Origin: Candidatus Kaiserbacteria bacterium
GTDB taxonomy: Bacteria; Patescibacteriota; Minisyncoccia; Phycocordibacterales; Phycocordibacteraceae
NCBI GenBank assembly: GCA_026396715.1
Contig: JAPLWH010000004.1
Coordinates: 1 to 41,121 of the forward strand
DNA length: 41,121 bases
Reading direction: 5' to 3'
Part shown: positions 1 to 34,453 of the stretch, piece after piece
Position numbering within the stretch: the first letter of the stretch is position 1
Layout of the letters: each line of letters starts with the position of its first letter
Notes under the pieces: model-generated
Seen by the model: only the letters and a program-made list of their open reading frames with translations
Database searches by the model: none
What the model was told of the DNA's origin: nothing
Made by a program: the position numbers and the translations under genes

Positions 1-171
1 GCTTTTTGCATGGCTCTTCTGGTACAACAGCGAGCGGGTACACTTCGCCTTCCAGAACAAGCTTTCTCCGCTTCAGTTCATGATATCGTTAGACCCGAAG
101 ACATTACCCGCGGAGTGCAAAAGTGGGTGGCCTCATACAGTAACATCAAAAAAATCGCGTATAGTAGTCCC

Positions 172-9048: not shown

Positions 9049-9819
9049 TTACTTCACGACCGGCGTCGAGGTTGCCGTCGTCGGAACCGCTGTCAAAAGC
9101 ATCGTTATCTTATCCGCCGAAATCAAAAGTCCGGTCGACTCTCCGCCACTGATACCGATGAGATTTCCTGAGAGATCAACAACCGCAGCACCAACACCAA
9201 TGTCCGGCAAGGTGGTATACACGCCCTTGGCAGTCACGCGCGCGACGATGCCAGTCGAAGCGTAACCATCAGAACCGAGCGCGAGCACAGTCTGGCCGAG
9301 TTTCAAATCAGCAGCAGCAAGGAGGACCGGCGAAACCATCTTCGGAAGTACGGCGCCATCGGCGAAACCGTAGACGGCAATACCCTTACCTTCATGCGAG
9401 AGCGATGCGAAAATAAATGCGCCGTTCGTAAACTCTATGAGCGCTTCTTTCGGCAAGACTTCAAGCGCTGCTGTCGCAACGGCGCGCGCCTTCGGAATAT
9501 ACGTGCCGACCGCAATGGCTGGCGTCGAAGTGCCGGTCTCTGCCGCATAAATAGCGACGGCGCGCGACGCATTCGCCCCAATCGCTGCCGTTACGAGATC
9601 CTGATTCGAAGGTGCAGATGCTTGAATGATCGCCGCAGGCGCAGCAGCAGTAACCGTTTCGATAGTGTGTTCGACCACGCGATTGACTGTCTGAGTAACA
9701 AAAGGCGGAGCTTTGTCGAGCAGCGAGACCGTCAAAATACCCGTCGCAACGGAAGTCACGAAGTTCACCAAGATCGTGAGGAGGATGAGTTGAGATTTTG
9801 AAAGTTCCTCAATGTTCAT
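9049..9819 (-). CDS. Membrane-anchored degenerate trypsin/HtrA-like protein
   Basis: N-terminal TM, LKLGQTVLALG, STGIVA, AVVDLSGNLIGI; catalytic GNSGG absent. Confidence 0.6.
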   Translation of the reverse strand: MNIEELSKSQLILLTILVNFVTSVATGILTVSLLDKAPPFVTQTVNRVVEHTIETVTAAAPAAIIQASAPSNQDLVTAAIGANASRAVAIYAAETGTSTPAIAVGTYIPKARAVATAALEVLPKEALIEFTNGAFIFASLSHEGKGIAVYGFADGAVLPKMVSPVLLAAADLKLGQTVLALGSDGYASTGIVARVTAKGVYTTLPDIGVGAAVVDLSGNLIGISGGESTGLLISADKITMLLTAVPTTATSTPVVK

Positions 9820-9831
9820 GCAACCATAATG

Positions 9832-10980
9832 CTACCCTTGATTGCTGTTGTCAATAAATGCGACTGCCCGAATAAGTGCCTTCGCGAAACGAGCCAATTC
9901 GCGCGGATATGTATCCGGTCCCCAGGAAATGCGAAGTGTCGCGCGAGCACGTTCGGGGTCTCCCGTAAGCGCGAGGACCGCCCGAGAACCTTCTTCGGAA
10001 TCCGTCTCGCAGGCGCTGCGTGAGGAAATGGCGAAACCGGCTTCATCGAGGAGCGCGACGATATAGTCCGTATCGCGGCCGGGAAGCGAAAGATTGAGGA
10101 TATGCGGCGCCTGTGAACGGCCTTCTTGTATATGTATGTTCAAAATAGCCGTAAGGGCCGCCTTGAGAAGCGTTCTGTTCTTTTCTGCGGAGACGCGAAA
10201 AGATTCGCGGCCAAGCACGGCGGCGGCGAGCGCGGCCGCGAAACTCTGTGCGAGCTCCGGCGCTTCGCTTCCGGAGCGTAGTCCGCGCTCCTGCCCGCCG
10301 CCAGCATACAGCGGCACGAGCGGAATCGTGCGATGCGCGATGAGCATTCCGATACCGCGCGCCGCACTGACCTTCGACGCATCGAAGGTCAGCATGTCCG
10401 CACCGAAATGCGCGCGCGAAATCTTTTCAGTGAGCGGCGCCTGACTTGCGTCGACATGCAGCATGATGCGCGCGGCGACTCCGTCGCCGCGCGCCTTTCG
10501 GAGCGTTTCAGCGACCTCGCGCGTATTCCACACCACGCCCGTCTCGCCACACACAGCGTCCATCGAGACAAGCACCGTCTCCTTTCGGATCATCGCCGCA
10601 AGCCTTTCACTATCGATGCGATAGTCTTTGACCGGAAGCGCCTCGATAGTGATGCCCTCCCTCGCCAATACGTTCATATTTTCGACGATTGAGGCGTGCG
10701 AGCTCGACAGATACAAAACGTGCATGTTATTTCTGCCCGGCACATCCGGACCAGCGAGCAAACGTAAGGCGCGCACATGCCCGAGGATGGCGAGCGCATT
10801 GCTCTCTGTCGCGCCGCTCGTGAAGAGGACGTCGTCCGGCTGTACCTCCGTGAGCCGCGCAATGGCTGTCCGCGCGTCTTCAAGCATCTTCTTCGCAAGC
10901 CGCCCTTCCTCGTGCGGCGACGACGGATTGCCACGTACCCCTGCGGCATAGTCGAGATAGGTTCTCCGCTTCCAAAACAT
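9832..10980 (-). CDS. Cysteine desulfurase (IscS/NifS family, PLP-dependent)
   Basis: YLDYAA, GNPSS, FTSGATESN, HVDASQA, GGGQERGLRSG, SSRSAC. Confidence 0.9.
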   Translation of the reverse strand: MFWKRRTYLDYAAGVRGNPSSPHEEGRLAKKMLEDARTAIARLTEVQPDDVLFTSGATESNALAILGHVRALRLLAGPDVPGRNNMHVLYLSSSHASIVENMNVLAREGITIEALPVKDYRIDSERLAAMIRKETVLVSMDAVCGETGVVWNTREVAETLRKARGDGVAARIMLHVDASQAPLTEKISRAHFGADMLTFDASKVSAARGIGMLIAHRTIPLVPLYAGGGQERGLRSGSEAPELAQSFAAALAAAVLGRESFRVSAEKNRTLLKAALTAILNIHIQEGRSQAPHILNLSLPGRDTDYIVALLDEAGFAISSRSACETDSEEGSRAVLALTGDPERARATLRISWGPDTYPRELARFAKALIRAVAFIDNSNQG

Positions 10981-11090
10981 AGGTTGATTCTACCGCACCC
11001 GCCGCTATTTCCTAACCGTTTCTCGCTATGCTAGATTTCGCCCAGAAGACAATTCGACTGATCTTTCCAATTCGCCACAAAGGAGAAAAA

Positions 11091-11633
11091 ATGAACACGT
11101 ACCTTATCTTGTTTCTCATTCCTAATCCGTTCTGTATACGGCTCTGCCGACTGATGGATGGCATCACGTCTATAACCGGCCTCACGCCGCCGTATCGGAA
11201 TCTCCCGCCACACGTTACCTTTCATAGACCTCTAACAGGCATTGTTGATGAGACCGTTTTGAAAGAGCTCTTGAGAGACACTGTCGCACGAATGAGGCAG
11301 ACGCGGATTACGCTCCACGGATTGTCTACGTTCGAAAAACAGTTTGTCATTCTTCCGGTCCAGGCGACTCGCGGTGCAGCGACGCTATGGGTGGAGATAG
11401 CAAAAGTCCTATCGCAACTACCGGAATATAAGCCGGGCGAATACGACAATGACAACACGTTACACGTTACCGTTGCTGAAAAAACCTCGCGCATTTTTGA
11501 TCAAGTATGGCCGAAAATCAGAAATATCGAGACCGAGATCATGCACATTCCCCTGCAAAGAATCGCGCTATATCGAAAACCGTTTGAGGGAGGCGTATGG
11601 AAGCAAATCGCCACCTTCCCTATTCCCGTATAA
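11091..11633 (+). CDS. 2H phosphoesterase (2'-5' RNA ligase-like family)
   Basis: Two HxT motifs (PHVTF, LHVTV); AAGGAG precedes ATG 11091. Confidence 0.8.
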   Translation: MNTYLILFLIPNPFCIRLCRLMDGITSITGLTPPYRNLPPHVTFHRPLTGIVDETVLKELLRDTVARMRQTRITLHGLSTFEKQFVILPVQATRGAATLWVEIAKVLSQLPEYKPGEYDNDNTLHVTVAEKTSRIFDQVWPKIRNIETEIMHIPLQRIALYRKPFEGGVWKQIATFPIPV

Positions 11634-11646
11634 AGACCCTTTTGAA

Positions 11647-11680
11647 CGCCTCGCCGCTTACCGGCGAGGCGGTTTTTATT
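11647..11680 (+). terminator. Intrinsic terminator
   Basis: CGCCTCGCCG-cttac-CGGCGAGGCG followed by GTTTTTATT. Confidence 0.75.
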
Positions 11681-11736
11681 GGTGCTGTCTCGAAAACATT
11701 GCAATTGAGTCATTTTTGTGATGAAATAGAGCCATT

Positions 11737-13206
11737 ATGGCGCGGACTCAAAGACCGCCCGTCATCGCGGTGATGGGCCATATAGACCACGGCAAGTCTT
11801 CGCTTCTGGATTACATCCGGAAGGCGACTGTCGTCGCGGGCGAAGCGGGCGGCATCACGCAGCACGTCGCTGCGTATATCGCGCTCCACAATGAGCGTCC
11901 GATCACTTTCCTCGATACGCCCGGGCACGAAGCCTTCAAAGCGCTCCGCACGCGCGGCGCGGCCGCGGCCGACATCAGTATCCTCGTTGTCGCCGCAGAC
12001 GAAGGCGTGATGCCGCAGACACTCGATGCGCTCGCCGCCATCACTGAAGCGGGAATCCCCTACATCGTCGCAATCACGAAGATCGACAAAAATAATGCCG
12101 ACGTCGGACACGCGAAGAACTCGCTTACTGAACACGGCATCTATATAGAAGGTATGGGCGGCGATATTGCCTTCGCGCTTGTCTCGTCGAAAACCGGCGA
12201 GGGCGTCCCGGAACTCCTCGACCTCGTCCTCCTCTCGGCAGATCTCGCCGACATTACCGCCGACCCAGAGGCAAGCGCGACGGGCTTCATCCTCGAAGCG
12301 ACACAAGACGCAAAGCGCGGCGCCTCGGCGACCCTCATCATAAAAGACGGCACGCTCACGCTCGACGGCTTCGTCGTTGCAGGTGATGCGTTCGCACCGA
12401 TCCGCTTCATCGAGAATTTCCTCGGCAAGCGCGCCCCAAGCGCGGGACCCTCAGAGCCGGTGCGCATTTCCGGATTCTCCAAGCTGCCGTCCGCCGGTTC
12501 CCTGTTCAGTGTTGTGAAGAGCAAGAAGGAAGCAGAGGCGCTCGCCAAAGAGAATGCAAAGTCGTTTTCGGCGGTGCCCGAGCGCGCGGCGGCGGTTGCA
12601 GGCATTACCGAGCTCCCGCTCATCATCAAAGCGGACGTCGCTGGTTCAGTTGATGCGATTGTGCATGAACTGAAAAAGATTACCCACGAACGCGCTTCGA
12701 TCCGCATCGTCTCATCGGGCGTCGGCAGCATTTCAGAGACCGACGTAAAGACCGCGCGCGGTGCAGGCGGGACGATCATAGCTTTCAACGTCTCGACTGA
12801 CGCGATCGCAAGCGACCTCGCACAGCGCGAGAGTATTTCAATCTTCTCATTCTCAATAATTTATGAACTGTCGGCGAAGATCAAAGAATTGCTCGCCGCC
12901 TGCGTCCCAGTCATCTCCGCCGAGAAAGAACTCGGACGTGCCCTCGTCTTGAAAACCTTTTCCTCGGGTACAAAGAAGCAAGTCCTCGGCGCGCGCCACA
13001 TCAAAGGCATCCTGACGGTCGGCGACCGCGTGAAGATTATGCGGAAAGATGTCGAGATTGCGCGCGGCAGCATCGGCAATCTCCAGCAGGCGCGCGCCGA
13101 CGTCAAAGAGATCAAGACCGAAGGCGACTTCGGCACCGAGATCGAAGCACGCGAAAATGCCGTCTACGGCGACGAGCTTATCGCTTTCGTCGTTACTGAA
13201 CTATGA
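11737..13206 (+). CDS. infB: Translation initiation factor IF-2, short form lacking the N-terminal domains
   Basis: [44 protein letters not shown]. Confidence 0.95.
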
Positions 13207-13207
13207 A

Positions 13208-13326
13208 TGCCGTTAGAAATCGCGGACGCATCGGTCGATACCAAAAAACAGGTTCGATTATTAACTCTAACCGAATAGGGTTCGGCTGCGCCACAAGTGG
13301 TGCGTTCGCGTCCTATTTCTAACGGT
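13208..13326 (+). mobile_element. Start-codon-inserted hairpin element, copy 1 (rbfA)
   Basis: ATGAA|TGCCGTTAGAAAT...TCCTATTTCTAACGGT|ATGAA. Confidence 0.7.
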
Positions 13327-13659
13327 ATGAACCCTGACGCTCGCATACGCACCCCTCGCAAGCAGTCGAATCGCGCGACTGAGATCGTCGCACGCGAAGC
13401 TGCGCAATTCATCGCGCGTGAAGCCGGGCGAGAATCCCTCATTACCGTCATTCAGGCGCGCAGCGTCGCGCACGGTGATCGCATTCTCGTTTTCGTGAGC
13501 GTCTTCCCTGTCGAAAAAGCTCACGCGGCAATGGCTTTCCTTGAGCGTCAGCGCGAAGCATTTTCCGACCACTTAAAGACGCATGCGCGCATGCGCCTCC
13601 CGCGCGTCGATTTCCTACTTGATAACGGCGAACCGTTAGCGGAACCTGCAAAAAGTTAG
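13327..13659 (+). CDS. rbfA: Ribosome-binding factor A
   Basis: Directly after infB; LITVIQARS..DRILVFVSVFP and LPRVDFLLD match the RbfA pattern. Confidence 0.8.
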   Translation: MNPDARIRTPRKQSNRATEIVAREAAQFIAREAGRESLITVIQARSVAHGDRILVFVSVFPVEKAHAAMAFLERQREAFSDHLKTHARMRLPRVDFLLDNGEPLAEPAKS

Positions 13660-13673
13660 TATCATCAAGAAAC

Positions 13674-13745
13674 GGCCCGGTGGTGAAGCGGTAACACAGC
13701 GCTCTGCAAAAGCGCGATGCGCGGGTTCGATTCCCGCCCGGGCCT
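13674..13745 (+). tRNA. tRNA-Cys(GCA)
   Basis: GGCCCGG/CCGGGCC acceptor stem, GCGCT-CT-GCA-AA-AGCGC anticodon arm, U discriminator. Confidence 0.95.
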
Positions 13746-13809
13746 CAAAGAGGTATACGTATGTGGATATAAGATTACCTGACTGTACCCAATGGGATAC
13801 AATTAGCCT

Positions 13810-14328
13810 GTGAACCGACGACGAACCTGGACACTTCTACAATTGCAAGAAGCCGTAAAAACTTCTACAAGCTTGCGGCAGGTTATTGCGAAACTGGATC
13901 TTGTTCCTGCTGGTGGTAACTATGTACAAGTTTCCAAAGCCATCAACGATCAGAAATTGAGCACGTCGCATTTCAAAGGACAAGGATGGAATAAGGGGAT
14001 GCGAATTCCCAAAGAGCCGATATATGAACTAAAAGATATCTTGGTTCTAAATAGCCACTATGGCTTGTATCATCTAAAACAACGCCTTTTTAAAATAGGC
14101 TTGAAAGAAGCGAAATGCGAAGAGTGTGGTTGGGCTCAAGTGAGTCCTGACGGACGAATACCAATTGAACTTGACCACATAAACGGAAATCGATACGACA
14201 ACCGACTTGAGAATCTGCGTATCCTTTGTCCCAATTGCCATAGCTTGAAACCCACTCATCGTGGTAAAAATAAGAAAGCACGCCGAGGTGGTGAAACTGG
14301 TAGACACGCGACGCTTAAAACGTTGTGA
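13810..14328 (+). CDS. HNH endonuclease
   Basis: CEECG...IELDHINGNRYDNRLENLRILCPNCHS; AT-rich; 3' end overlaps tRNA-Leu. Confidence 0.9.
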   Translation: MNRRRTWTLLQLQEAVKTSTSLRQVIAKLDLVPAGGNYVQVSKAINDQKLSTSHFKGQGWNKGMRIPKEPIYELKDILVLNSHYGLYHLKQRLFKIGLKEAKCEECGWAQVSPDGRIPIELDHINGNRYDNRLENLRILCPNCHSLKPTHRGKNKKARRGGETGRHATLKTL

Positions 14329-14372
14329 GCTTTAATCGGCTCTTGTGGGTTCGATTCCCACCCTCGGCACCA
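14282..14372 (+). tRNA. tRNA-Leu(TAA)
   Basis: GCCGAGG/CCTCGGC acceptor stem, CT-TAA-AA anticodon loop, long variable arm, encoded CCA. Confidence 0.93.
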
Positions 14373-14489
14373 CAAGAGTACTTCAGAAAACATAGTCGTG
14401 AGTACACTTCTTGTTTTCTTGGTCGCACAGCAGAAGCGCAGCGAATGTTGTGTGGGGAGCATGCGATAGCGTGCGAGTGGGAATCGAAT

Positions 14490-14589
14490 GGCGGAGCCAT
14501 ATGCGAGTCTCCGAGCATATGGCGAGCCGGGGTCGAGAGTGCGAGACGGATTGCGAATACTTGGAGCAATCCGTCCGTAACTCGTGACC
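14490..14589 (+). ncRNA. tRNA-associated structured motif, copy B
   Basis: GGC-GGA-GC[hairpin]GC-GA-GCC-GGGGT[hairpin]GTGACC. Confidence 0.55.
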
Positions 14590-14592
14590 GAT

Positions 14593-14607
14593 CCACCCTC
14601 GGCACCA
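14593..14607 (+). repeat. Direct repeat of the tRNA-Leu(TAA) 3' end (att-like)
   Basis: CCACCCTCGGCACCA is identical to 14358-14372. Confidence 0.85.
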
Positions 14608-14626
14608 TGTTACGATACGCGAACCT

Positions 14627-15484
14627 ATGGAGCCTGTTTGTTATCTAAATGGAGCGATCACTCCTCTTAAAGACGCGCGGGTCGGTATACTCGACCTCGG
14701 CGTGCTTCGCGGCTTCGGCATCTACGACGGACTCACTTCCTTTGCCGGAGAGCCGTTCCGTTTCAAGGATCACTGGGAACGATTCCAAGTTGCTGCGAAC
14801 ACACTCGGCCTGACCATACCGCATACGAAAGAGGAGGTGCAGAACGTGATGCGCGCAGTCATCGCTCACAACGCGCCCGGAGTGCGAGCAAATCTCCGCA
14901 TGGTGCTGACTGGCGGCGAAGCAAAAGGAGGCCTTGAGCCGGTGCCGTGGCGCGAGACTCTTTTCATTACTGCAGAGGCAGCTGTACCCTTGCCCGCCGC
15001 GCTCTACGAGCGCGGCGGGAGTCTCCTGTCATACGAGCATCAACGTCTCATGCCGGAGATCAAGACGACCAATTACATTACGGCCGTGCTACTCCAAAAA
15101 AAGCGCGCGGCTGCGGGTGCAGTCGAGATTCTCTACACAACTGGCGGCCGCGTACTCGAATGCGCGACGAGCAATGTATGCATCGTAAAAAATGGTGTCG
15201 TCGCGACCCCCGATACCGGAGTGCTCAAAGGCGTTACTCGCAAAATAGTCCTCGAGCTTGCGCAGGGCGCGTACCCGACCGAGGAACGCGCAATCTCGAC
15301 CGATGAGGTCTTTGCTGCTGATGAGGTGTTCATCACGGGATCTTTCAAAGACCTCATGCCCATCGTCTCGATAGACGGGCACGCCATCGGCTCTGGAACT
15401 CCCGGCCCCATTACGCGCGACCTCATGCAACGCTTCGCCGAGTACACAAAGCGCAATATTGAAGAGAACGCCTCCATCGTGTAG
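14627..15484 (+). CDS. Class IV PLP aminotransferase (IlvE/D-amino-acid transaminase-like)
   Basis: RGFGIYDGL, HWERF, IKTTNY, ECATSNV, VLKGVTR, ADEVFITGS. Confidence 0.9.
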   Translation: MEPVCYLNGAITPLKDARVGILDLGVLRGFGIYDGLTSFAGEPFRFKDHWERFQVAANTLGLTIPHTKEEVQNVMRAVIAHNAPGVRANLRMVLTGGEAKGGLEPVPWRETLFITAEAAVPLPAALYERGGSLLSYEHQRLMPEIKTTNYITAVLLQKKRAAAGAVEILYTTGGRVLECATSNVCIVKNGVVATPDTGVLKGVTRKIVLELAQGAYPTEERAISTDEVFAADEVFITGSFKDLMPIVSIDGHAIGSGTPGPITRDLMQRFAEYTKRNIEENASIV

Positions 15485-15559
15485 AGTGCAACATAACGCG
15501 CCCATATCTTCTCGGATATGATATTGACGCTCGTTCGGTGCAAAACTCGATCTCAGTAT

Positions 15560-15632
15560 GCGCCTATAGCTCAGTTGGTAGAGCAGCTCCCTCTTAAGGA
15601 GACGGTCCCTGGTTCGAATCCAGGTAGGCGCA
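15560..15632 (+). tRNA. tRNA-Lys(CTT)
   Basis: GCGCCTA/TAGGCGC acceptor stem, CT-CTT-AA anticodon loop, TTCGAAT T-loop. Confidence 0.95.
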
Positions 15633-15671
15633 CAAAACAGTTTGACTTGCTATAGTTCCATAGAAGAGATT

Positions 15672-15754
15672 GCTGGGGTGGCGAAATTGGTAGACGCATC
15701 AGCCTTAGGAGCTGACGGGGTAACCCATTGGAGGTTCGAGTCCTCTCCCCAGCA
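15672..15754 (+). tRNA. tRNA-Leu(TAG)
   Basis: GCTGGGG/CCCCAGC acceptor stem, TCAGC-CT-TAG-GA-GCTGA anticodon arm, long variable arm. Confidence 0.95.
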
Positions 15755-15892
15755 CTGACATGAGCGTAGCGAGTATAGTCGCTACGCTCCGTACCTTCTT
15801 GGTCGCACTTGACTTTCTCATAGTTTTCTGTATTATTTCCACCAGAAAACAAGTTCTCTGTTACCTAAACAAACTCACAAAGGAGTGTTGAA

Positions 15893-16936
15893 ATGGCTCA
15901 GGATGCAAAACATACCGGCTACCGTATTGATCTGCGACCGCCCCACGACGGACAGATTAAGACCAGGAATCGTTTCTTCCGATTAATGTGGTTCCTTATT
16001 TCTACAGGATTCATCATTGGGGCACCAACAGCATTAGTAGGTTATTGGGGTTTGCTGATTGGACACGAGACTATCGGGTACCTACTAGGATTCTGCGGTG
16101 GTGGCACACTCGCGCGATGGATAATCCCCGACCGTATGCTCATCTACAATCCAGAATGGACCGGGTATGTTACTCAGAACATGTTCACAGGAACGATGAT
16201 TCCGTACGGTCCAGGACTTCACCTATCGCACTGGTGGGAAGAACGTAACAAGAATGGTAATTATTCACTGAAAGTAATTACACGACCTTTCAGTGTAGGC
16301 ATTTCAACGCAAAGCGCGAAAGTAATTGTCGGTGGAAAGTTCGAATATGCTATTGACCTTGCTCTGATTGAACGGGCTATCGGTGTTGACGCATCAACGA
16401 TAGAAAGCGGCATTACTGCTTTTATCGATAGTTTCCTCACGAGCCAGTGTGCCCAAATGGATGCAGGTGAGGTACGGAAGCAAATTACTGAACTCAATGA
16501 AAAACTTTCCTTGGAATTCATGAGTAGAAAAGAGGGTGGCAAGGACCCGATAAGTTTCGGCAGCAAGTACGGTTTCATTACCGTAAGCGTTGTCATCGAC
16601 AGCATCGCATTCCCCAGTGCGGTTCAAAAGACCAGAGACGCCATCGATGAGGCTGAAGTGCTTCATGAGGTGGTGGCTCGACTCTATGGGTATGAACCGG
16701 CAATGCTGAAAACGAAGATTGCATCAGGAGAAATCTCGACAGATGCATACAATAAAATGCTCAACAGGGCACTGACAGTATCGGGTAACGACACTAAGAT
16801 GGATATCACAGTCGTCGAAGGTGATATCCCAATTCTAGCGGTCAAACTGGCCGAAAAATTCCTGAATGAGAAAAAAGTGGGTTCTCCCAAACAAGGAAAT
16901 AAAGCGTCACGTCCCACACAAGGAGGAAGACGATGA
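15893..16936 (+). CDS. Membrane protein, probable SPFH/band-7 domain
   Basis: Two N-terminal TMs, YGPGLHL..WWE, KYGFITVSVVIDSIAFP..VQK; SD AAGGAG; lower GC. Confidence 0.55.
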   Translation: MAQDAKHTGYRIDLRPPHDGQIKTRNRFFRLMWFLISTGFIIGAPTALVGYWGLLIGHETIGYLLGFCGGGTLARWIIPDRMLIYNPEWTGYVTQNMFTGTMIPYGPGLHLSHWWEERNKNGNYSLKVITRPFSVGISTQSAKVIVGGKFEYAIDLALIERAIGVDASTIESGITAFIDSFLTSQCAQMDAGEVRKQITELNEKLSLEFMSRKEGGKDPISFGSKYGFITVSVVIDSIAFPSAVQKTRDAIDEAEVLHEVVARLYGYEPAMLKTKIASGEISTDAYNKMLNRALTVSGNDTKMDITVVEGDIPILAVKLAEKFLNEKKVGSPKQGNKASRPTQGGRR

Positions 16937-17394
16937 ATCTATCTGAGGCGAAAAACAGCGCTGAGGCTGAGGGTACCGAGAAGTCCGTAAAATTTCGAAA
17001 GACGGCTCGAAACTCAATCATTACCTTGGTTTCCATCGTCGTACTAATCGTCTCGACGAAAGAGGTGTCAGATTACATGCTGATCCACCAAATGGAGAGC
17101 GATCAATCGGATCAGACATCTGGAATTCCTCTCATAAGCGATTCTGAGGAATCTTGGCCGAGATTTATCCTAAAGGAACGCGGAAAATCGAAACTTATTC
17201 CGGTGGATACTGACAAAACCATTAAGATCATCGGATCGGCCGAGTTTCGCATTCACTGTGTGTATCAGAATAAAAGTGAAATATCCTATGGTGCAGGAGA
17301 AGCTCCCTGCCCCAAAGGCAACATGCCGTGGGTGTATGTAACAAATCAGGCGAGAGGGAAAAATATCATTCATTACGCCTACGTTCCTCTGTAA
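16933..17394 (+). CDS. Hypothetical single-TM protein coupled to the upstream gene
   Basis: ATGA overlap, SD AGGAGG, one TM helix, two Cys in the C-terminal domain. Confidence 0.65.
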   Translation: MNLSEAKNSAEAEGTEKSVKFRKTARNSIITLVSIVVLIVSTKEVSDYMLIHQMESDQSDQTSGIPLISDSEESWPRFILKERGKSKLIPVDTDKTIKIIGSAEFRIHCVYQNKSEISYGAGEAPCPKGNMPWVYVTNQARGKNIIHYAYVPL

Positions 17395-17414
17395 GTTCTT
17401 TGTTCTTTCCAAAA

Positions 17415-17448
17415 AAGGCCGTACCGGTTCAAACCCGGTACGGCCTTT
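17415..17448. terminator. Bidirectional terminator
   Basis: AAAGGCCGTACCGG-ttcaaac-CCGGTACGGCCTTT between convergent genes. Confidence 0.8.
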
Positions 17449-17465
17449 CTCTTTTTATACTCCGC

Positions 17466-17744
17466 TTATAAACCGCCGAACTTCCCTGGAGTTAATTTGT
17501 CGATGCCGAACGTACCGAGCGCGATATTGATGATGCCGTACGCGCCGAAGATGATTACAAATCCAAGGATACCCCAAAAAATAGCTTGCTTCCCTTCCTC
17601 GCGCTTCCCTTCGTCTCCAGCTCCTTTGACGAACTCAAACACGCCCCAGAGAAACACGATGAAAGCACTCGCCGAAAGAAGCAGAATGATCGGATTGATG
17701 ATCTGCACGACGACCTTCCCGAGGAATTGGTAGAGCGCAGACAT
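17466..17744 (-). CDS. TrbC/VirB2-like pilin
   Basis: IINPII..FLWGVFEFV..KREEGKQAIFWGILG. Confidence 0.75.
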   Translation of the reverse strand: MSALYQFLGKVVVQIINPIILLLSASAFIVFLWGVFEFVKGAGDEGKREEGKQAIFWGILGFVIIFGAYGIINIALGTFGIDKLTPGKFGGL

Positions 17745-17751
17745 TTACTGA

Positions 17752-18120
17752 CTACTGGCCGACGGTCTTCGCTGCTGGAAGACCAGACTGTGACGCATTG
17801 CCGAAGCTGACCGTGCCCGTGAGGATGTTCACCAAGCCCCATACGGAGACCATCACGAAGAAACCGATGAGTCCCCAAAGCATGAGATTCTTGCCGTGTT
17901 CTTTTACCTCTTCGGAGTTTGCTCCCAAGATAAAGGTGTCGAATGCACCCCAAATGAAGACGATGAATGCGATGGCAAACAAGACCGGCACGAAGACATT
18001 ATTGATTGTATTAATGATGAATGAACCGACGTCCGAAAGATTATTTATGGCAGCAGAAGAGATGAGCGGTACGGCAAATGCGGCGAGAGTTACTGAAGTG
18101 AGGGCGAGAGCTTTTTTCAT
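17752..18120 (-). CDS. TrbC/VirB2-like pilin with signal peptide (candidate major pilin)
   Basis: FVPVLFAIAFIVFIWG..GKNLMLWGLIGFFVMVSVWGLVN; own promoter TTGACG-16-TACAAT at 18174-18147. Confidence 0.78.
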   Translation of the reverse strand: MKKALALTSVTLAAFAVPLISSAAINNLSDVGSFIINTINNVFVPVLFAIAFIVFIWGAFDTFILGANSEEVKEHGKNLMLWGLIGFFVMVSVWGLVNILTGTVSFGNASQSGLPAAKTVGQ

Positions 18121-18207
18121 AATATAGGTAAATGGTTAACGAGGTAATTGTAACGTTCCTGTAAGCAGCGTCAATCGGATGTTTTCATCCTGTGTGGATA
18201 GACCCGA

Positions 18208-18507
18208 TTAGATCTTCGGTGGTGGTGGTGCGAAATTGATTGCATTGCCGGAAAAGAACCCGAACGTAGCACCGACAATATATACCAGACCCCAGACAGA
18301 AGCGATGACCGCAAAACCGATAACGCCCCAGAGAACAAACTGGCGCCCTTCGGAACGCTTGTCTTCGCTTTCTGCTCCGAGAATGAAATAATTGTAGACC
18401 CCCCAAAGAAACGTAAGGAGTGCGATGGCCATTACTGCCGGAATGAAAAGAAAATTGATGATGATGAGGATATTCTCCTTATACCCCTGCAAATAGCTTA
18501 TATCCAT
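18208..18507 (-). CDS. TrbC/VirB2-like pilin
   Basis: FLWGVYNYF..KRSEGRQFVLWGVIG..SVWGLV. Confidence 0.75.
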   Translation of the reverse strand: MDISYLQGYKENILIIINFLFIPAVMAIALLTFLWGVYNYFILGAESEDKRSEGRQFVLWGVIGFAVIASVWGLVYIVGATFGFFSGNAINFAPPPPKI

Positions 18508-18516
18508 AGTTCGGAA

Positions 18517-19026
18517 TTATCTCGATGGAGACATGAGCGGCGAATATGAGGTCGGCTGCATCGGTGCAAAATACCCAGCGAGACCGAAGGTGTTCGCGAC
18601 GACATTTACCAATCCCCAGACTGACACCATGACCGCGAAAGCGATGAGGCCCCAGAGGATGATCTGGTGGCCGCTTTTAACCGCCTCTTCATCGCCAGTG
18701 GAGAAAATGTAGGCTTTCGCGACACCGTAGAGGAATACGATGAAAGAGATCGCAAAAAGGAGCGGCACTAGCACACTGTTGATGAGGTAGATGATGTTGG
18801 ACGCTACGCCGCCGACACCGTATCCCCCGCCGGGAAATATACCGCCGAAACCGCCACTGAAGGGTCCGAACATGGCACTGCCGCCTGAATACGTCTGACT
18901 ACCTTGATATGTATACGGCCCGCCACCAATGAGAACTCCGCCGCCTGGCGGCAACATTTGTGCAAATGCGAGAGCCGGAGCGAGAAAAAGAATACCGAGA
19001 AGAGCAGTGCGGGCGGTTGATTTCAT
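18517..19026 (-). CDS. TrbC/VirB2-like pilin with Gly-rich N-terminus
   Basis: Signal peptide MKSTART..AFA, Gly-rich linker, GHQIILWGLIAFAVMVSVWGLVN. Confidence 0.72.
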   Translation of the reverse strand: MKSTARTALLGILFLAPALAFAQMLPPGGGVLIGGGPYTYQGSQTYSGGSAMFGPFSGGFGGIFPGGGYGVGGVASNIIYLINSVLVPLLFAISFIVFLYGVAKAYIFSTGDEEAVKSGHQIILWGLIAFAVMVSVWGLVNVVANTFGLAGYFAPMQPTSYSPLMSPSR

Positions 19027-19045
19027 ATGCGACAAGTATCGCATA

Positions 19046-19333
19046 TTATTTGGCGGGCGCGATGCCGAGCGTGGATAACACGACATTCACAAATCCCCAG
19101 ACCGAGACGAGCACAACCATGCCGAGAATACCCCAGAGGATGAACTCGCGACCTTCGGTGCGCTTCGTGTCATCACTGCCATGGAGGAAGAAATAACTCA
19201 CGACGCCCCAGACGAAGCTCGCGAGCGCGAGCGCGAAAATAACCGGTACGATGATGGTATTGATGATGCCCACGATGCCGCCGGTGCCATTACCGATGAA
19301 ATCCTTAAGACTGGTTCCGCCGGACAAATTCAT
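19046..19333 (-). CDS. TrbC/VirB2-like pilin
   Basis: IVPVIFALA..FVWGVVSYF..KRTEGREFILWGILG..SVWG. Confidence 0.75.
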   Translation of the reverse strand: MNLSGGTSLKDFIGNGTGGIVGIINTIIVPVIFALALASFVWGVVSYFFLHGSDDTKRTEGREFILWGILGMVVLVSVWGFVNVVLSTLGIAPAK

Positions 19334-19334
19334 A

Positions 19335-19799
19335 TCAGTTACCTGAGGAGAGCGCCTGCACCGTCGCCTGGATACCGAGAGCTATCGCTTTTGACCCGAG
19401 AAGGACGAGTGCGCCGACGACCGTCCAGAGGAGCATTTCTTTGGCAGCCGTTATCTCTGACTCGCTCCCTTGAGCAGTCACGAATTTAAAGCCGACATAC
19501 ACGAGCATCAAAACGACGACAATGGAACCGATATCTATGATAAAATTTAGGATATTGAGGAGAAATGACTGGAGATTATCCCCCCCTTGAAGCGGATTGG
19601 TAAGAGTGACGTTTGAGCCATTGGAACCGGTATTTCCTTCTGGCGACGGCAAAGTAAAGCCCGTATTCCCACCCGGTCCAGGCAAGGTAAAGCCGCCCGG
19701 AGTGCTCCCTGCGGGTGGATTTTTAAGTTGTGCATGCGCAACACTCGTAGCACCTACGATAAACAAAACGACAATGAATGCTGTAGAAAAGAAGCGCAT
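19335..19799 (-). CDS. TrbC/VirB2-like pilin with an N-terminal 11-aa tandem repeat
   Basis: LTNPL..GFKFVTAQG..AKEMLLWTVVG; GFTLPxPxGNT twice (19627-19692). Confidence 0.75.
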   Translation of the reverse strand: MRFFSTAFIVVLFIVGATSVAHAQLKNPPAGSTPGGFTLPGPGGNTGFTLPSPEGNTGSNGSNVTLTNPLQGGDNLQSFLLNILNFIIDIGSIVVVLMLVYVGFKFVTAQGSESEITAAKEMLLWTVVGALVLLGSKAIALGIQATVQALSSGN

Positions 19800-19801
19800 A
19801 T

Positions 19802-21109
19802 TTATTGTTGCAGTAGCGAACTCAGAGAGCGCGCGGCATCGCCGATGGCTGTATCGAGAGTAGAGTGGCCACTTATCACATTCCCAATCATACCTGAAAA
19901 GACGCGGTCAGCGTCAGCGGGAGCTGGGGACAGCCACCCCTCGGCATAGAGCGCTTCAGGGTATGCAACTGCGGCGACCGGATCAGAAGGAGCGGCCTTC
20001 GCAAGCTCGTTCACACTCGCGGGCGCGAGCCCAGTCGCTGTGGCTGCTGCAGCCTGCTCTGCCGAGCCAGTAAGGAGCACGGCAACCTGATACGCGCCCG
20101 CAGCATTCTTCGCTCCACGCGGCAACATAAAGGCGTAGAGGAGGCCGTAAGCGCGCTTCGTCCTCGCTGTCGCGCTCTGCGGCAGTGGCGTCACGATGAA
20201 ATCGAGATTTGGATTCGCTGAACTGAGAAAACGCGCGCGCGACGCATACCCGAGATAGAGCGCGAGGTCGCCTGTAAGGAACATCTGCTCGGAATCCGGT
20301 AACGAGGTATTCCATGTGTACGAGACTTTCGAAGGGTCAGCGAATTGTGTATAGAAACCGAGCACCGACGAACCTTTCGAGGCATCACTTGAAGCATTTT
20401 GCCCGAGATCAGCGACAGGAACGCCACTCGACGAATACGAAGATATCGGAATCCCCTGCTGCAAGAAGAGTGCTGAAAGTATGCCGCGAGCATTGCGGAC
20501 ATTGTCATAAGTGCCGAGCGCGATGAGGCCGCGAGTAATCTGCCGTGACGGCGTCAAAATTGCGATGTTCGGCACAAGGCCGACAAGAGCTTCCCAGGTT
20601 GCAGGCGGCTTCGCAATACCGCTGCTTGAAAGGATGGAACGATTTGAGAAAAGAACGAGCGGATCGACGAGAAACGGCACGCCGTAGTAGCCAGAGCCGC
20701 CCGGTGCCGTGAAAATACCTCCCTCTCTAATGAATGTTCTTGTGAAGTCGCTCGCTGGAAGCGTCGAAAGCGGCACCGGCTCGATAAACCTCGTGAGCCC
20801 TCGCAAACTCTCCTGTGACGCGAGGACGAGGTCAGGCGAGCTACCAGTCGCTATCGCGGTAGCAATGTCGGCTGGAAGCGTCGCAGCATCTTTCTGCACA
20901 TAGGTAACATCTTTGAGCGTCGCATCAATCTTCGCAGCGGCAGTAAGCGCAGCCTGCATACCCTCGGAAGGCAAAGTGCCCCAGATGACGACACTACCGA
21001 TTGCATTTGATCCGCTCGTGCCCGTGAATGTCGCGAAGACGAACAGACCTATGAGCGCGCCGACGGAGAATACGCCGAGAAGGATGGTTTGAAAGAGAGA
21101 TAATTTCAT
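19802..21109 (-). CDS. Extracellular solute-binding protein (sugar-binding family), N-terminally anchored
   Basis: TM anchor, VVIWGTLP, PDLV, GVPFLVDPLVLFSN, PPATW, FLTGDLALYLG. Confidence 0.8.
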   Translation of the reverse strand: MKLSLFQTILLGVFSVGALIGLFVFATFTGTSGSNAIGSVVIWGTLPSEGMQAALTAAAKIDATLKDVTYVQKDAATLPADIATAIATGSSPDLVLASQESLRGLTRFIEPVPLSTLPASDFTRTFIREGGIFTAPGGSGYYGVPFLVDPLVLFSNRSILSSSGIAKPPATWEALVGLVPNIAILTPSRQITRGLIALGTYDNVRNARGILSALFLQQGIPISSYSSSGVPVADLGQNASSDASKGSSVLGFYTQFADPSKVSYTWNTSLPDSEQMFLTGDLALYLGYASRARFLSSANPNLDFIVTPLPQSATARTKRAYGLLYAFMLPRGAKNAAGAYQVAVLLTGSAEQAAAATATGLAPASVNELAKAAPSDPVAAVAYPEALYAEGWLSPAPADADRVFSGMIGNVISGHSTLDTAIGDAARSLSSLLQQ

Positions 21110-21227
21110 CCCGTTAGAGGTAGGAAATCGGAGATTTCCGTACGATTATTGATGATAATTCTTTCGATACTTTCATCTCGTTCAGCATAGCATTAAAATT
21201 ATCGTCCAGACCTAACCTCTAACGGGA
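21110..21227 (-). mobile_element. Start-codon-inserted hairpin element, copy 2 (solute-binding protein gene)
   Basis: Minus strand: ATGAA|TCCCGTTAGAGGT...TCCTACCTCTAACGGG|ATGAA. Confidence 0.7.
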
Positions 21228-21228
21228 T

Positions 21229-21765
21229 TCATGGTGAGGTAAAGACGATTCCGTAATGGTGCGGCCCGGCGCGAAACGACTTTACCTTATGAAAACCGCC
21301 ACTAATGAAGAAGTCTTCCGCGGCGTGCTCAGTGACGACTTTCTCGGGTACTGGACCCAACCCACCGTAACTGCCCGCCCAGTCGACAACCATAAGCTTC
21401 CCTCCCGACTTAAGTACGCGCTTCATCTCCTTTAAGAGTCCAAAACGATTCTCGATCTGAAAGAGCGTGTTTGCGAGAATGATTGCGTCGAGCGACGCAT
21501 CGCGCAAATGCGATCCACCCGGTTTTTCGATATCGCCCCAGATCGTTTCGATAGTGCTCTGATGATGCGCGTGCGTATTGAGCTTGAGATGCTTGAGGAT
21601 TTCCTCCTGCACGTCGATCGCGTAGACCCTACCGCTGTGCCCGACGATAGCTGCCGCCGCGCGCGAATAGTGGCCGGTGCCCGCGCCGAAGTCGCCGACC
21701 TTCATGCCTTCGCGCAAACCAAGCTGCAACACGTTCTCGTGCGGGACGCTAAATGAGACACTCAT
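21229..21765 (-). CDS. Class I SAM-dependent methyltransferase
   Basis: VGDFGAGTG, VYAIDVQ, RVLKSGGKLMVVDW; start ATG 21765 follows TGgTATTTT. Confidence 0.88.
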   Translation of the reverse strand: MSVSFSVPHENVLQLGLREGMKVGDFGAGTGHYSRAAAAIVGHSGRVYAIDVQEEILKHLKLNTHAHHQSTIETIWGDIEKPGGSHLRDASLDAIILANTLFQIENRFGLLKEMKRVLKSGGKLMVVDWAGSYGGLGPVPEKVVTEHAAEDFFISGGFHKVKSFRAGPHHYGIVFTSP

Positions 21766-33413: not shown

Positions 33414-33451
33414 TCTCTCGGCTATGAACGGTACACTACGAGCTATATGTA

Positions 33452-33529
33452 CCCCGTTAGAAATGACGGACTTATATGCTTACCTTATTCACACTTATGA
33501 ACGAGACGAACCGTCCTATTTCTAACGAG
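33452..33529 (+). mobile_element. Start-codon-inserted hairpin element, copy 3 (trxB)
   Basis: ATGTA|CCCCGTTAGAAAT...TCCTATTTCTAACGAG|GTGCA. Confidence 0.65.
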
Positions 33530-34453
33530 GTGCACGACCTCATCATCATCGGCGGCGGACCGGCGGGCGTCGCCGCGGGCGTCTACGCGGCTCGCAAACA
33601 CTTGAAGACCGCCCTCATTACGGAAGAGATCGGCGGACAATCGGTCGTCTCCGATGGCATAGAGAACTGGATCGGCACGCCGAAGATCAGCGGCGCCGAT
33701 CTCGCGAAATCATTCAAAGCGCATCTCGACGCCGTGAAAGGCGACGTGGTAACGCTGGTACTCGGCGAACGGGTCGTGTCGCTCACAAAAGCCCCAGAAG
33801 GATTCCTCGCGAAGACGAAGACCGGAAAAGAGTTTACGGCGAAAGCGGTGCTCATCGCCACCGGCGCGGGCCGCCGCAAGCTCGACGTCCCTGGCGCACA
33901 CCTCTTTGAGAACAAAGGCGTTACCTACTGCGCCTCTTGCGACGGACCGCTCTTCGGCGGCATGGACGTCGCGGTCATCGGCGGCGGCAATGCAGGCTTC
34001 GAGACGGCGCTCCAGCTCCTCGCGTATGCAAAGTCGGTCACGCTCATCCATCGCCATAAAGAGTTCAAGGCCGATGCGGTCACGGTCGAGAAAGCGAGCG
34101 CGCACCCGAACATGCGTATCATCCGGCACGCTGAACCGACTGAGGTCATGGGCACGCAGTTCGTAACCGGTTTGAAATACAAAGACAAAGACTCGGGCGA
34201 GGTACAAGAGCTCGCCGTCTCCGGCGTCTTCGTCGAAGCGGGCGTCATCCCGAATACCGACTTCACTGAGGGGCTCGTGGAACTCGACGCAGTCAAACGC
34301 GTGAAGACCGATCCGCGCAATCAGCACACGAGCGTCGAAGGCGTCTGGGCGGCGGGAGACTGCACCGACGAGCTCTATCATCAGAACAACATCGCCACCG
34401 GCGACGGCGTGAAGGCGCTCGAAGACATCTACCTCTGGATCAAGAAGCAGTAG
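33530..34453 (+). CDS. trxB: Thioredoxin reductase / AhpF C-terminal-like FAD disulfide reductase
   Basis: DLIIIGGGPAG, CASCDG, IGGGNAG, WAAGD; start is GTG 33530 or in-frame ATG 33497. Confidence 0.9.
   Translation: MHDLIIIGGGPAGVAAGVYAARKHLKTALITEEIGGQSVVSDGIENWIGTPKISGADLAKSFKAHLDAVKGDVVTLVLGERVVSLTKAPEGFLAKTKTGKEFTAKAVLIATGAGRRKLDVPGAHLFENKGVTYCASCDGPLFGGMDVAVIGGGNAGFETALQLLAYAKSVTLIHRHKEFKADAVTVEKASAHPNMRIIRHAEPTEVMGTQFVTGLKYKDKDSGEVQELAVSGVFVEAGVIPNTDFTEGLVELDAVKRVKTDPRNQHTSVEGVWAAGDCTDELYHQNNIATGDGVKALEDIYLWIKKQ

Follow-up and report, generated by a model that had tools for sequence, protein, structure and literature searches.

The stretch of DNA analysed here (41,121 nt, called the window below) is contig C3 of a 705-kb, 32-contig Candidatus Kaiserbacteria genome (G000), and it carries, at the junction between infB and the next gene, a 120-nt hairpin element placed exactly on a start codon. 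This element, copy 1, is a member of a real and mobile family of start-codon-resident hairpin elements, of the Ssn-like kind in which a hairpin goes together with a nuclease. We consider it probable, at roughly 0.68, that copy 1 is a non-autonomous miniature of a family of hairpin-ended mobile DNA elements whose full-length form encodes a GIY-YIG nuclease. The family and its copy number are directly observed, as are insertion polymorphism with exact empty sites, a target duplication, placement on start codons, the architecture of the open reading frames (ORFs) and covariation in the stem; that the GIY-YIG protein is the mobilising nuclease is what we infer. A first-pass annotation of the window had proposed an element that is mobile but non-autonomous and that restores the start codons into which it inserts, in a family of three. 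The first part is upheld by empty sites, flanking duplications and 19 of 27 copies lying on ORF starts; the second falls well short, with at least 27 members in G000.

The infB gene (11737-13206, + strand), named as such at first reading and identified by its Pfam IF-2 and GTP_EFTU domains, ends in the stop codon TGA, which shares bases with the original ATG of the gene downstream (ATGA). That original ATG consists of A13203 together with the left TGAA of a 4-nt target duplication (13204-13207, +). Copy 1 occupies 13208-13327 (+), and its last base, A13327, is the first base of a regenerated ATG; with the right TGAA (13328-13331, +) it makes the working start codon of a 110-aa ORF (13327-13659, +). 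ATGAA hence flanks the copy on both sides, at 13203-13207 and 13327-13331. The 110-aa ORF stands where rbfA usually does, but lacks an RbfA Pfam match, and the name rbfA, given to it earlier, is a positional label only. From the captured original ATG, a 39-codon upstream frame (13203-13322, +) runs to a TAA (13320-13322) in the right end of the element, 4 nt ahead of the regenerated ATG at 13327, just as first described. The terminal stem of 13 bp reads T-G-CCGTTAGAAAT / ATTTCTAACGG-T-A, and it encloses the internal motif CTAAcCgAATAGGGTTCGGC as well as an inner stem from which TCCT bulges out. The RNAfold structure (-54.2 kcal/mol) has this long terminal stem and an inner stem in which 4 nt bulge on the 3' side; the bulge reported from the letters alone is present in it.

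Two further copies lie in the window, with the sequences and coordinates originally given for them, and the window holds no mobiliser. Copy 2 (119 nt, 21109-21227, - strand) belongs to another subfamily, with a GAGGT/ACCTC stem, and sits at the ATG of a gene for a 435-aa solute-binding protein; its TGAA duplications are at 21105-21108 and 21228-21231 (TTCA on the + strand), again giving ATGAA on both sides. Copy 3 (79 nt, 33452-33530, +) has a C...G terminal pair and lies at the start of a thioredoxin-reductase-like gene. Here the flanking 4-mers differ (TGTA at 33448-33451, TGCA at 33531-33534), the upstream start being ATG (33447) and the regenerated one GTG (33530). The earlier statement that all copies sit between duplicated first bases of their genes thus holds for copies 1 and 2, but only partly for copy 3, with ATGTA on one side and GTGCA on the other.

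Mobility is best seen by comparison with relatives, and empty alleles, named in the first-pass annotation as something to look for, are indeed present. In 26 of the 27 same-genus genomes that have both flanks of the infB junction, the junction is a plain ATGA overlap and the element is absent. The remaining one (L037, in genome G006; L numbers denote loci from relatives) has kept a hairpin remnant of 36 nt, CCCATTAGAAATCGGATTTCAAACGGGG, which lies within the N-terminal part of the downstream ORF and preserves its frame; the TAA of the element is now CAA there, so that the remnant is apparently translated. A close relative of the same genus, G013, was compared as a whole genome. Its empty infB site ends in the letters ...GAGCTATGAACCCTGAC, and the empty target, where copy 1 is flanked by TGAA in G000, reads CTATGAACCC. 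Exact empty sites are found in G013 for six G000 elements, namely copy 1, those at C5:15693, C7:75409, C13:27158 and C28:9980, and a 274-nt copy on C20. At other G000 sites, one has only a 10-nt remnant in G013, six are shared, and two start codons common to both genomes hold elements of different subfamilies, window copy 2 being one of these; a further eight G000 rows were left unresolved. Conversely, nine G013 elements are missing from G000, among them the 271-nt GIY-YIG copy of G013. One such site lies in the window, where the ATGAA start of a 256-aa ORF (9815-9819, -) is unoccupied and G013 has a 72-nt element. The two genomes thus show 15 presence/absence differences, both full-length copies included, within flanks that are about 80-97% identical.

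The distribution is patchy. The 12-mer TCTAACGGGATG occurs 16 times in G000 (its backwards control 0 times there, and once across 41 genomes), and is present in 12 of 41 relatives, with 6 of the 24 genomes of the genus. A search for paired ends, also proposed at the outset, found 23 CGTTAGA...TCTAACG pairs in G000 by strict regular expression, 21 in G013 and 30 in another genome, G009; among 401 genomes of the phylum, 62 have paired ends, with up to 47 copies, the control giving mostly 0-2. Tandem insertions occur at a single start codon in two relatives (L002 in G037:C15, L004 in G027:C6), where a mini (a short, non-autonomous copy) is followed by one shared TGAA and then by a full-length GIY-YIG element. 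For copy 1 and copy 2, contigs assembled from four DNA runs were compared with window positions 9500-21500. They contain neither an empty allele nor an excision product, and no contig joint bridges 13207 to 13327; this is uninformative on excision, since contigs drop rare variants. Joints from 13229 to 13302-13307 are other family copies matching the conserved ends.

Copies in G000 were also counted with relaxed ends and then curated, which gives at least 27, of 27-274 nt. In 19 of these 27, an ATG or GTG lies exactly 2 nt past TCTAACG and opens an ORF of 97-603 aa, in agreement with the start-codon abutment originally reported. ATG occurs 23,416 times in G000, counting both strands, for about 757 ORFs, and at least 1,517 of these ATGs lie outside ORFs; if ATG were simply preferred and intragenic insertions were lost, no more than about a third of the surviving copies would be on start codons, and this combination therefore does not explain the placement. 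The bare 8-mer with one mismatch is not enriched in G000 (13 found, 26.7 expected); the signal resides in the inverted pairs and their position, not in the bare 8-mer. In the class of about 110 nt, the element has a single orientation relative to the gene in 20 of 20 rows, from about 14 distinct sites.

A few observations on targets may be added here. In the subfamily with the inner stem CACGAAC/GTGTTC, four of six members (G000 C5:13709, C12:10024, C27:7187 and C8:42047) have ATGCG starts; the element itself may dictate this choice of target, or the donor flank may have passed it on. Several targeted ATGs are preceded, at a distance of 5-9 nt, by hexamers that resemble a -10 box; TAGAAT, TATAGT, TATAAT and TATACT lie 6-8 nt before the ATG, for example at G000:C13:27158, C21:40542, C7:75409, C8:52899 and C5:13709, with no obvious Shine-Dalgarno sequence; they were picked out by eye and have no control set. 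As a speculation from these hexamers, many targeted genes may be leaderless.

Long copies encoding an enzyme, which the first-pass annotation had named as something to seek, were found. The 274-nt copy on G000:C20 has the same ends as the short copies and encodes a 95-aa protein, in which Pfam GIY-YIG matches residues 11-77 above the cut-off (E=1.6e-13) as the sole domain. Its ORF runs from the upstream duplicated ATG to a TGA overlapping the host ATG. To place it among relatives, a profile of three such ORFs was used on species genomes, and the counts that follow are for the best 80 of at least 561 relatives; these are in metagenome-assembled genomes labelled as many lineages of the candidate phyla radiation (CPR), with a few labelled otherwise. 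The same ends bound 75 of the 80 loci, with cores of 268-295 nt (all but one 268-278), and the terminal bases pair in 71 of these 75 long copies. Long copies with a T...A pair number 53, and 43 of them are at the start of an ORF of at least 100 aa; of 17 with a C...G pair, only two are. In 36 of 45 start-codon long copies, the nuclease ORF opens at the captured ATG and closes at a TGA that shares bases with the ATG of the host gene. The residues MNPVRD and RFLSLTG of the nuclease are encoded by the inverted repeats themselves. An alignment of seven sequences has invariant GIY, YIG, Arg, His and Glu columns; among solved structures, UPF0213 proteins (E=3e-12) and SLX1 come nearest. A search of G000 to 3.5 kb found no larger element that has these ends.

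Besides this one, G000 has four small GIY-YIG ORFs, and one of the four is enclosed by a perfect inverted repeat of 19 nt with another sequence. At L195:1469-1774 (G000:C29), L003, L006 and L011, small GIY-YIG ORFs are framed by inverted repeats that differ in sequence, and L011 also lies on a start codon, ATGAG being present on either side. Several 'dialects' of ends thus occur side by side. In L007 (G033:C2), a small GIY-YIG ORF lies in a 16S rRNA gene and is bounded by the 11-nt inverted repeat TGCCACACCTC / GAGGTGTGGCA. In each of L005, L014 and L015, a tRNA gene has a small GIY-YIG ORF a short way upstream, with a 12-15-nt copy of the 5' part of the tRNA on the far side, which looks like a parallel design that regenerates a 5' end.

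The long copies also bear on the size of the duplication. Flanking 4-mers are identical in 46 of the 75 long copies, and are TGAA in 39. The duplication is best read as 4 nt (TGAA) accompanied by the terminal base pair of the element. A 5-nt duplication, with an extra base complementary to its first base, was considered and dropped, and the C...G copies speak for the shorter reading: of the eight C...G copies whose two 4-mers agree, three have G as the base in front, three have A and two have another base. ATG upstream is combined with GTG downstream in window copy 3, L124, L160 and L190. The duplication of ATGAA reported from the window is therefore a genuine flanking duplication, but of four nucleotides plus the last base of the element and not of five.

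The stem is under selection for pairing. Nineteen copies of about 110 nt were compared. Pairing is complete (100%) over the 13 bp of the terminal helix, four of whose pairs are changed on both sides, and the 8-bp inner helix is 81.6% paired, with three such pairs. The covariation score is 0.168 against 0.100 in shuffles, and none of 500 shuffles reaches it; the compensatory changes seen in the terminal stem of the three window copies are thus substantiated across the larger set. Interiors of the subfamilies, by comparison, are largely unrelated. In 32 copies we found no bias towards folding of the sense strand, which is the more stable in 14 (Wilcoxon p=0.39). G-U pairs on the sense strand, remarked on for copy 1, are accordingly not a property of the family. 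The absence of a sense-strand bias favours a DNA hairpin over an RNA hairpin. Of the two forms of recognition first suggested, folded single-stranded DNA or RNA, RNA is thus not favoured, and single-stranded DNA is favoured by analogy with the Ssn nucleases as characterised in the accessible text of PMC11893778.

The right end, TCTAACGGGATGA, offers a different outcome in each frame: in one, a TAA stop falls 4 nt ahead of the ATG; in the second, the stop is a TGA that overlaps this ATG; in the third, the frame runs on into the host gene as an in-frame fusion. In 32 start-codon minis, the upstream frame is open to the end of the element in 16, compared with five when the interior is reversed. 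This excess of open frames and the uniform orientation fit selection for coupling or a strand-specific mechanism, and not a strict need for coupling. The translational coupling proposed earlier is plausible, but is not universal, since only those 16 of the 32 have the open frame.

The closest published relative of this arrangement is Ssn. Ssn is a single-domain GIY-YIG nuclease of 94 aa that binds its hairpin only as single-stranded DNA, on one strand, and cuts a few nucleotides upstream of it (PMC11893778, accessible text). Its gene is bracketed by hairpin repeats that have many genomic copies, a layout there termed 'identical to' that of an insertion sequence (IS) (Chenal et al. 2025, PMC11893778, accessible text). 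The shared features are these: the protein here has 95 aa and the same single domain, hairpin repeats lie around the gene and are multi-copy in the genome, and the Ssn cut lies in the variable upstream flank, which is the position of the duplicated TGAA here (Ssn features from the accessible text of PMC11893778). There are also differences. The ssn gene lies between separate hairpins of 20-50 nt according to the same text, whereas here the gene is inside one hairpin formed by both ends. Features found here that go unmentioned in the accessible text of PMC11893778 are the exact empty sites, the duplication of 4 nt, the placement on start codons and the captured host ATG; the terms 'start codon', 'target site' and 'Patescibacteria' are absent from that text. 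In the open literature, we found no description of a start-codon-targeting hairpin element or of a bacterial GIY-YIG transposon, although the supplementary Ssn/SRM tables of PMC11893778 may include CPR genomes. The view that the family is undescribed thus needs qualifying: the published SRM motif does not match it, but hairpin repeats tied to 94-aa GIY-YIG genes in an 'IS-like' layout appeared in 2025 (PMC11893778, accessible text).

In outline, the element has the form (T/C)CCCGTTAGA...TCTAACGGG(A/G), its ends pairing into a stem of at least 13 bp. Insertion duplicates 4 nt, usually the TGAA that follows the A of an ATGAA start codon, and the last base of the element with the duplicated TG then rebuilds the start, as ATG for T...A elements and as GTG for C...G elements. 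The full-length form, of about 285 bp, comprises only the two ends and one ORF, for a predicted 94-95-aa single-domain GIY-YIG nuclease. This ORF opens at the captured host ATG, so that the left end encodes M-N-P-V-R-D, and closes at the TGA overlapping the rebuilt ATG (ATGA). In this way the element would borrow the initiation signals of the host gene and pass ribosomes on to it, host genes presumably being translated by termination-reinitiation. By analogy with Ssn nucleases, the protein may recognise the folded ends as single-stranded DNA and nick a few nucleotides upstream of the foot of the hairpin, with host repair completing the move. A stronger form of this proposal, which we put forward only tentatively and at somewhat less than even odds, is a class of prokaryotic transposon whose sole protein is a GIY-YIG nuclease of about 90 aa, Ssn-like and hairpin-recognising, that actively targets start codons (A|TGAA). 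Targeting would then be perhaps of single-stranded DNA at transcription initiation of leaderless genes, and minis could have spread to start codons across CPR genomes of 0.6-1.3 Mb, up to dozens in each. If this form were true, the element would be, at about 285 bp, the smallest autonomous mobile element known to us.

Several observations weigh against the interpretation of copy 1 as a miniature of a nuclease-encoding element. Eight of the 27 G000 copies are off start codons, mostly with C...G terminal pairs and other flanking words, and four C...G minis (G000:C18:1391-1446, C8:39754-39809, C28:9980-10032 and C32:2585-2658) lie within long stop-to-stop ORFs whose frame is intact. The uniform orientation of the class of about 110 nt could reflect selection and not mechanism, and the interpretation supplies no reason for the start-codon specificity. 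In 16 of the 32 start-codon minis, the upstream frame is stopped early, and coupling is therefore not the only route by which host genes are translated. The SRM motif published for Ssn has three hits in the genome against 3-9 in ten shuffles, and none of the three is on an element. A cognate long copy with exact ends was found in only five of the ten highest-copy genomes of the phylum; G092, G064 and G217 have none, and what matches in G145 and G365 resembles a span from one mini to another. G009, with 30 minis, likewise has no long copy with these ends. We know of no transposition activity of a GIY-YIG protein of this kind. GIY-YIG enzymes hydrolyse DNA and form no covalent intermediates for strand transfer, which means that joining would be left to host functions.

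Another possibility is that all the copies are passive, being moved by an unrelated recombinase of the host or of an IS, with the GIY-YIG ORF a selfish passenger between the ends. We think this unlikely, although we know of no established GIY-YIG transposase, five of the ten highest-copy genomes have no visible cognate long copy, and the genome does hold a multi-copy IS, with an end at window 1-170 and at several contig ends. The shared sequence there, about 100 nt or more, is found at window 1-170, at the starts of G000 C1, C12, C13 and C25 and at the ends of C8 and C28; it looks like the last part of a transposase ORF, encoding the C terminus, and is probably a multi-copy IS that breaks the assembly. 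As a mobiliser it was rejected: it shares only a chance CGTTAGA with the element, and has no similar terminus. Further, the long form leaves no room for other genes, no larger element with these ends lies within 3.5 kb in G000, and the nuclease ORF is built from the ends (MNPVRD, RFLSLTG) across many lineages, at 75 of 80 loci. Small GIY-YIG ORFs are also found within other inverted-repeat pairs (L003, L006, L011 and G000:C29). Less likely again is that we are looking at a domesticated system, Ssn/NTS-like, that controls incoming single-stranded DNA and is no longer a transposon, its copies being old and fixed. Six elements do sit at orthologous sites in G000 and G013, and Ssn/NTS modulates transformation in Neisseria, where the authors suggest a domesticated IS-like unit (PMC11893778, accessible text). 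Old and fixed copies are, however, hard to reconcile with 15 presence/absence differences between two genomes of one genus, both full-length copies included, with presence in only 6 of 24 genomes of the genus or with the tandem insertions of L002 and L004, and the published SRM motif is unmatched.

Two explanations at the level of RNA seem more remote. The hairpin might act chiefly as RNA in the 5' part of the host mRNA, for example as a translational operator, a leader peptide or an RNase III site, its spread being secondary. This would suit the co-orientation with genes (20 of 20 in the class of about 110 nt), the excess of open upstream frames (16 against 5 of 32 with reversed interior) and a stem that takes in the first base of the start codon. 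We regard it as improbable given the lack of a sense-strand folding bias (14/32, p=0.39), interiors that are largely unrelated between subfamilies, and host genes that are unrelated too (the neighbour of a translation factor, a solute-binding protein, a thioredoxin reductase-like protein), while orthologues work with no element in 26 of 27 genomes. There is also no Rfam match: Rfam 15 finds only tRNAs at gathering score in the window, and nothing even at E<=10 in 13150-13380. Very improbable indeed is removal of the element from the transcript in the manner of an intron, or its bypass by a ribosome passing from the first ATGAA to the second. The take-off and landing sequences around the compact hairpin are identical, and CPR rRNA insertions encoding GIY-YIG proteins are reportedly removed from transcripts (PMC11270868, accessible text). 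Against this, no intron or ribozyme model matches, there is no stop after the first ATG, and the full-length form appears clearly translated from that ATG as the nuclease ORF, judging by the reading frame of 36 of 45 copies. Two other identities were rejected. Copy 1 is not an intrinsic terminator, since the stem is followed by ATGAACCCTGAC, with no T run (read from the sequence; a terminator scan was not run). It also does not fit an integron attC site, for which the motif is RYYYAAC...GTTRRRY, in cassette arrays. Here the ends are GTTAGAA/GTTAGAG, in which the seventh base is not a pyrimidine, and copies are scattered one at a time over start codons; no integrase search was made.

Returning to the nuclease-encoding hairpin element, it can be compared with better known small mobile DNAs. 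Correia elements of Neisseria and Rickettsia palindromic elements are short, have terminal inverted repeats and target duplications, are present in many copies and are co-transcribed. The Rickettsia elements also occur in-frame inside genes, as do C18:1391 and C8:39754 here. We know of no miniature inverted-repeat transposable element (MITE) or palindromic repeat that sits systematically on start codons or rebuilds them. Like MITEs, the family has terminal inverted repeats, a duplication seen against the empty site (15 pairs of empty and occupied sites) and a longer relative with a candidate mobiliser. Where autonomous partners of MITEs are known, they are DDE transposases, while here the partner would be a 95-aa nuclease. 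IS200/IS605, PATE and REP/RAYT elements use an HUH tyrosine transposase and subterminal hairpins, and make no target duplication. The likeness to IS200/IS605 lies in very small size, recognition of hairpins in single-stranded DNA, strand-specific insertion directed by a short word, and abundant minis; the difference is that here a GIY-YIG protein is the only ORF, the ends pair together and the target duplication is of 4 nt (no search for a Y1 transposase was made in the genome). GIY-YIG homing endonucleases resemble the element as selfish nuclease genes between host genes, often with overlapping start and stop signals. I-TevI and the Seg proteins have a separate DNA-binding domain, are single-copy without inverted ends or duplications, and use break repair to reach the same site in further genomes. 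A homing endonuclease of the I-TevI type was rejected, the protein having only 95 aa and scoring 17.9 bits with TIGR01453, the NCBIfam model for group I intron endonucleases, for which the cut-off is 56.05. Lastly, non-intron insertions in CPR rRNA genes contain GIY-YIG ORFs, sparsely and outside a homing context (Tsurumaki et al. 2024, PMC11270868, accessible text). They share the phylum and a small GIY-YIG ORF in a stem-bounded insertion, L007 being such a case, but lie in rRNA helices, and neither start-codon elements nor minis are mentioned in the accessible text of PMC11270868.

Two features elsewhere in the window may be recorded. A cluster of tRNA genes (Cys, Leu, Lys, Leu) at 13674-15755 lies directly downstream of the host ORF of copy 1. 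At 172-191, the start of a RelA/SpoT-like ORF reads ATGACGCCCGTTAAGAAAAT, which resembles the left end of the element, ATGAATCCCGTTAGAAAT, and could be a fused relic.

For annotation of CPR genomes, the family concerns about one in six of those sampled (62/401). Gene callers will misplace the starts of affected genes, and may call the frames of 39-41 codons as genes and miss in-frame insertions. The presence or absence of copies offers fine-scale markers of strain history, and the pair of hairpin and nuclease may be a compact tool for cutting single-stranded DNA. The design is unusual, in that the element lands on a start codon, takes the initiation signals of the host gene and returns a rebuilt ATG or GTG with a stop-start overlap, and translational coupling can thereby be studied, as a natural experiment, in organisms beyond the reach of culture. 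If the 95-aa GIY-YIG protein moves the elements, this class of nuclease would join the short list of enzymes of prokaryotic transposition, and the 'IS-like' layout of Ssn/NTS would become a testable and still active case.

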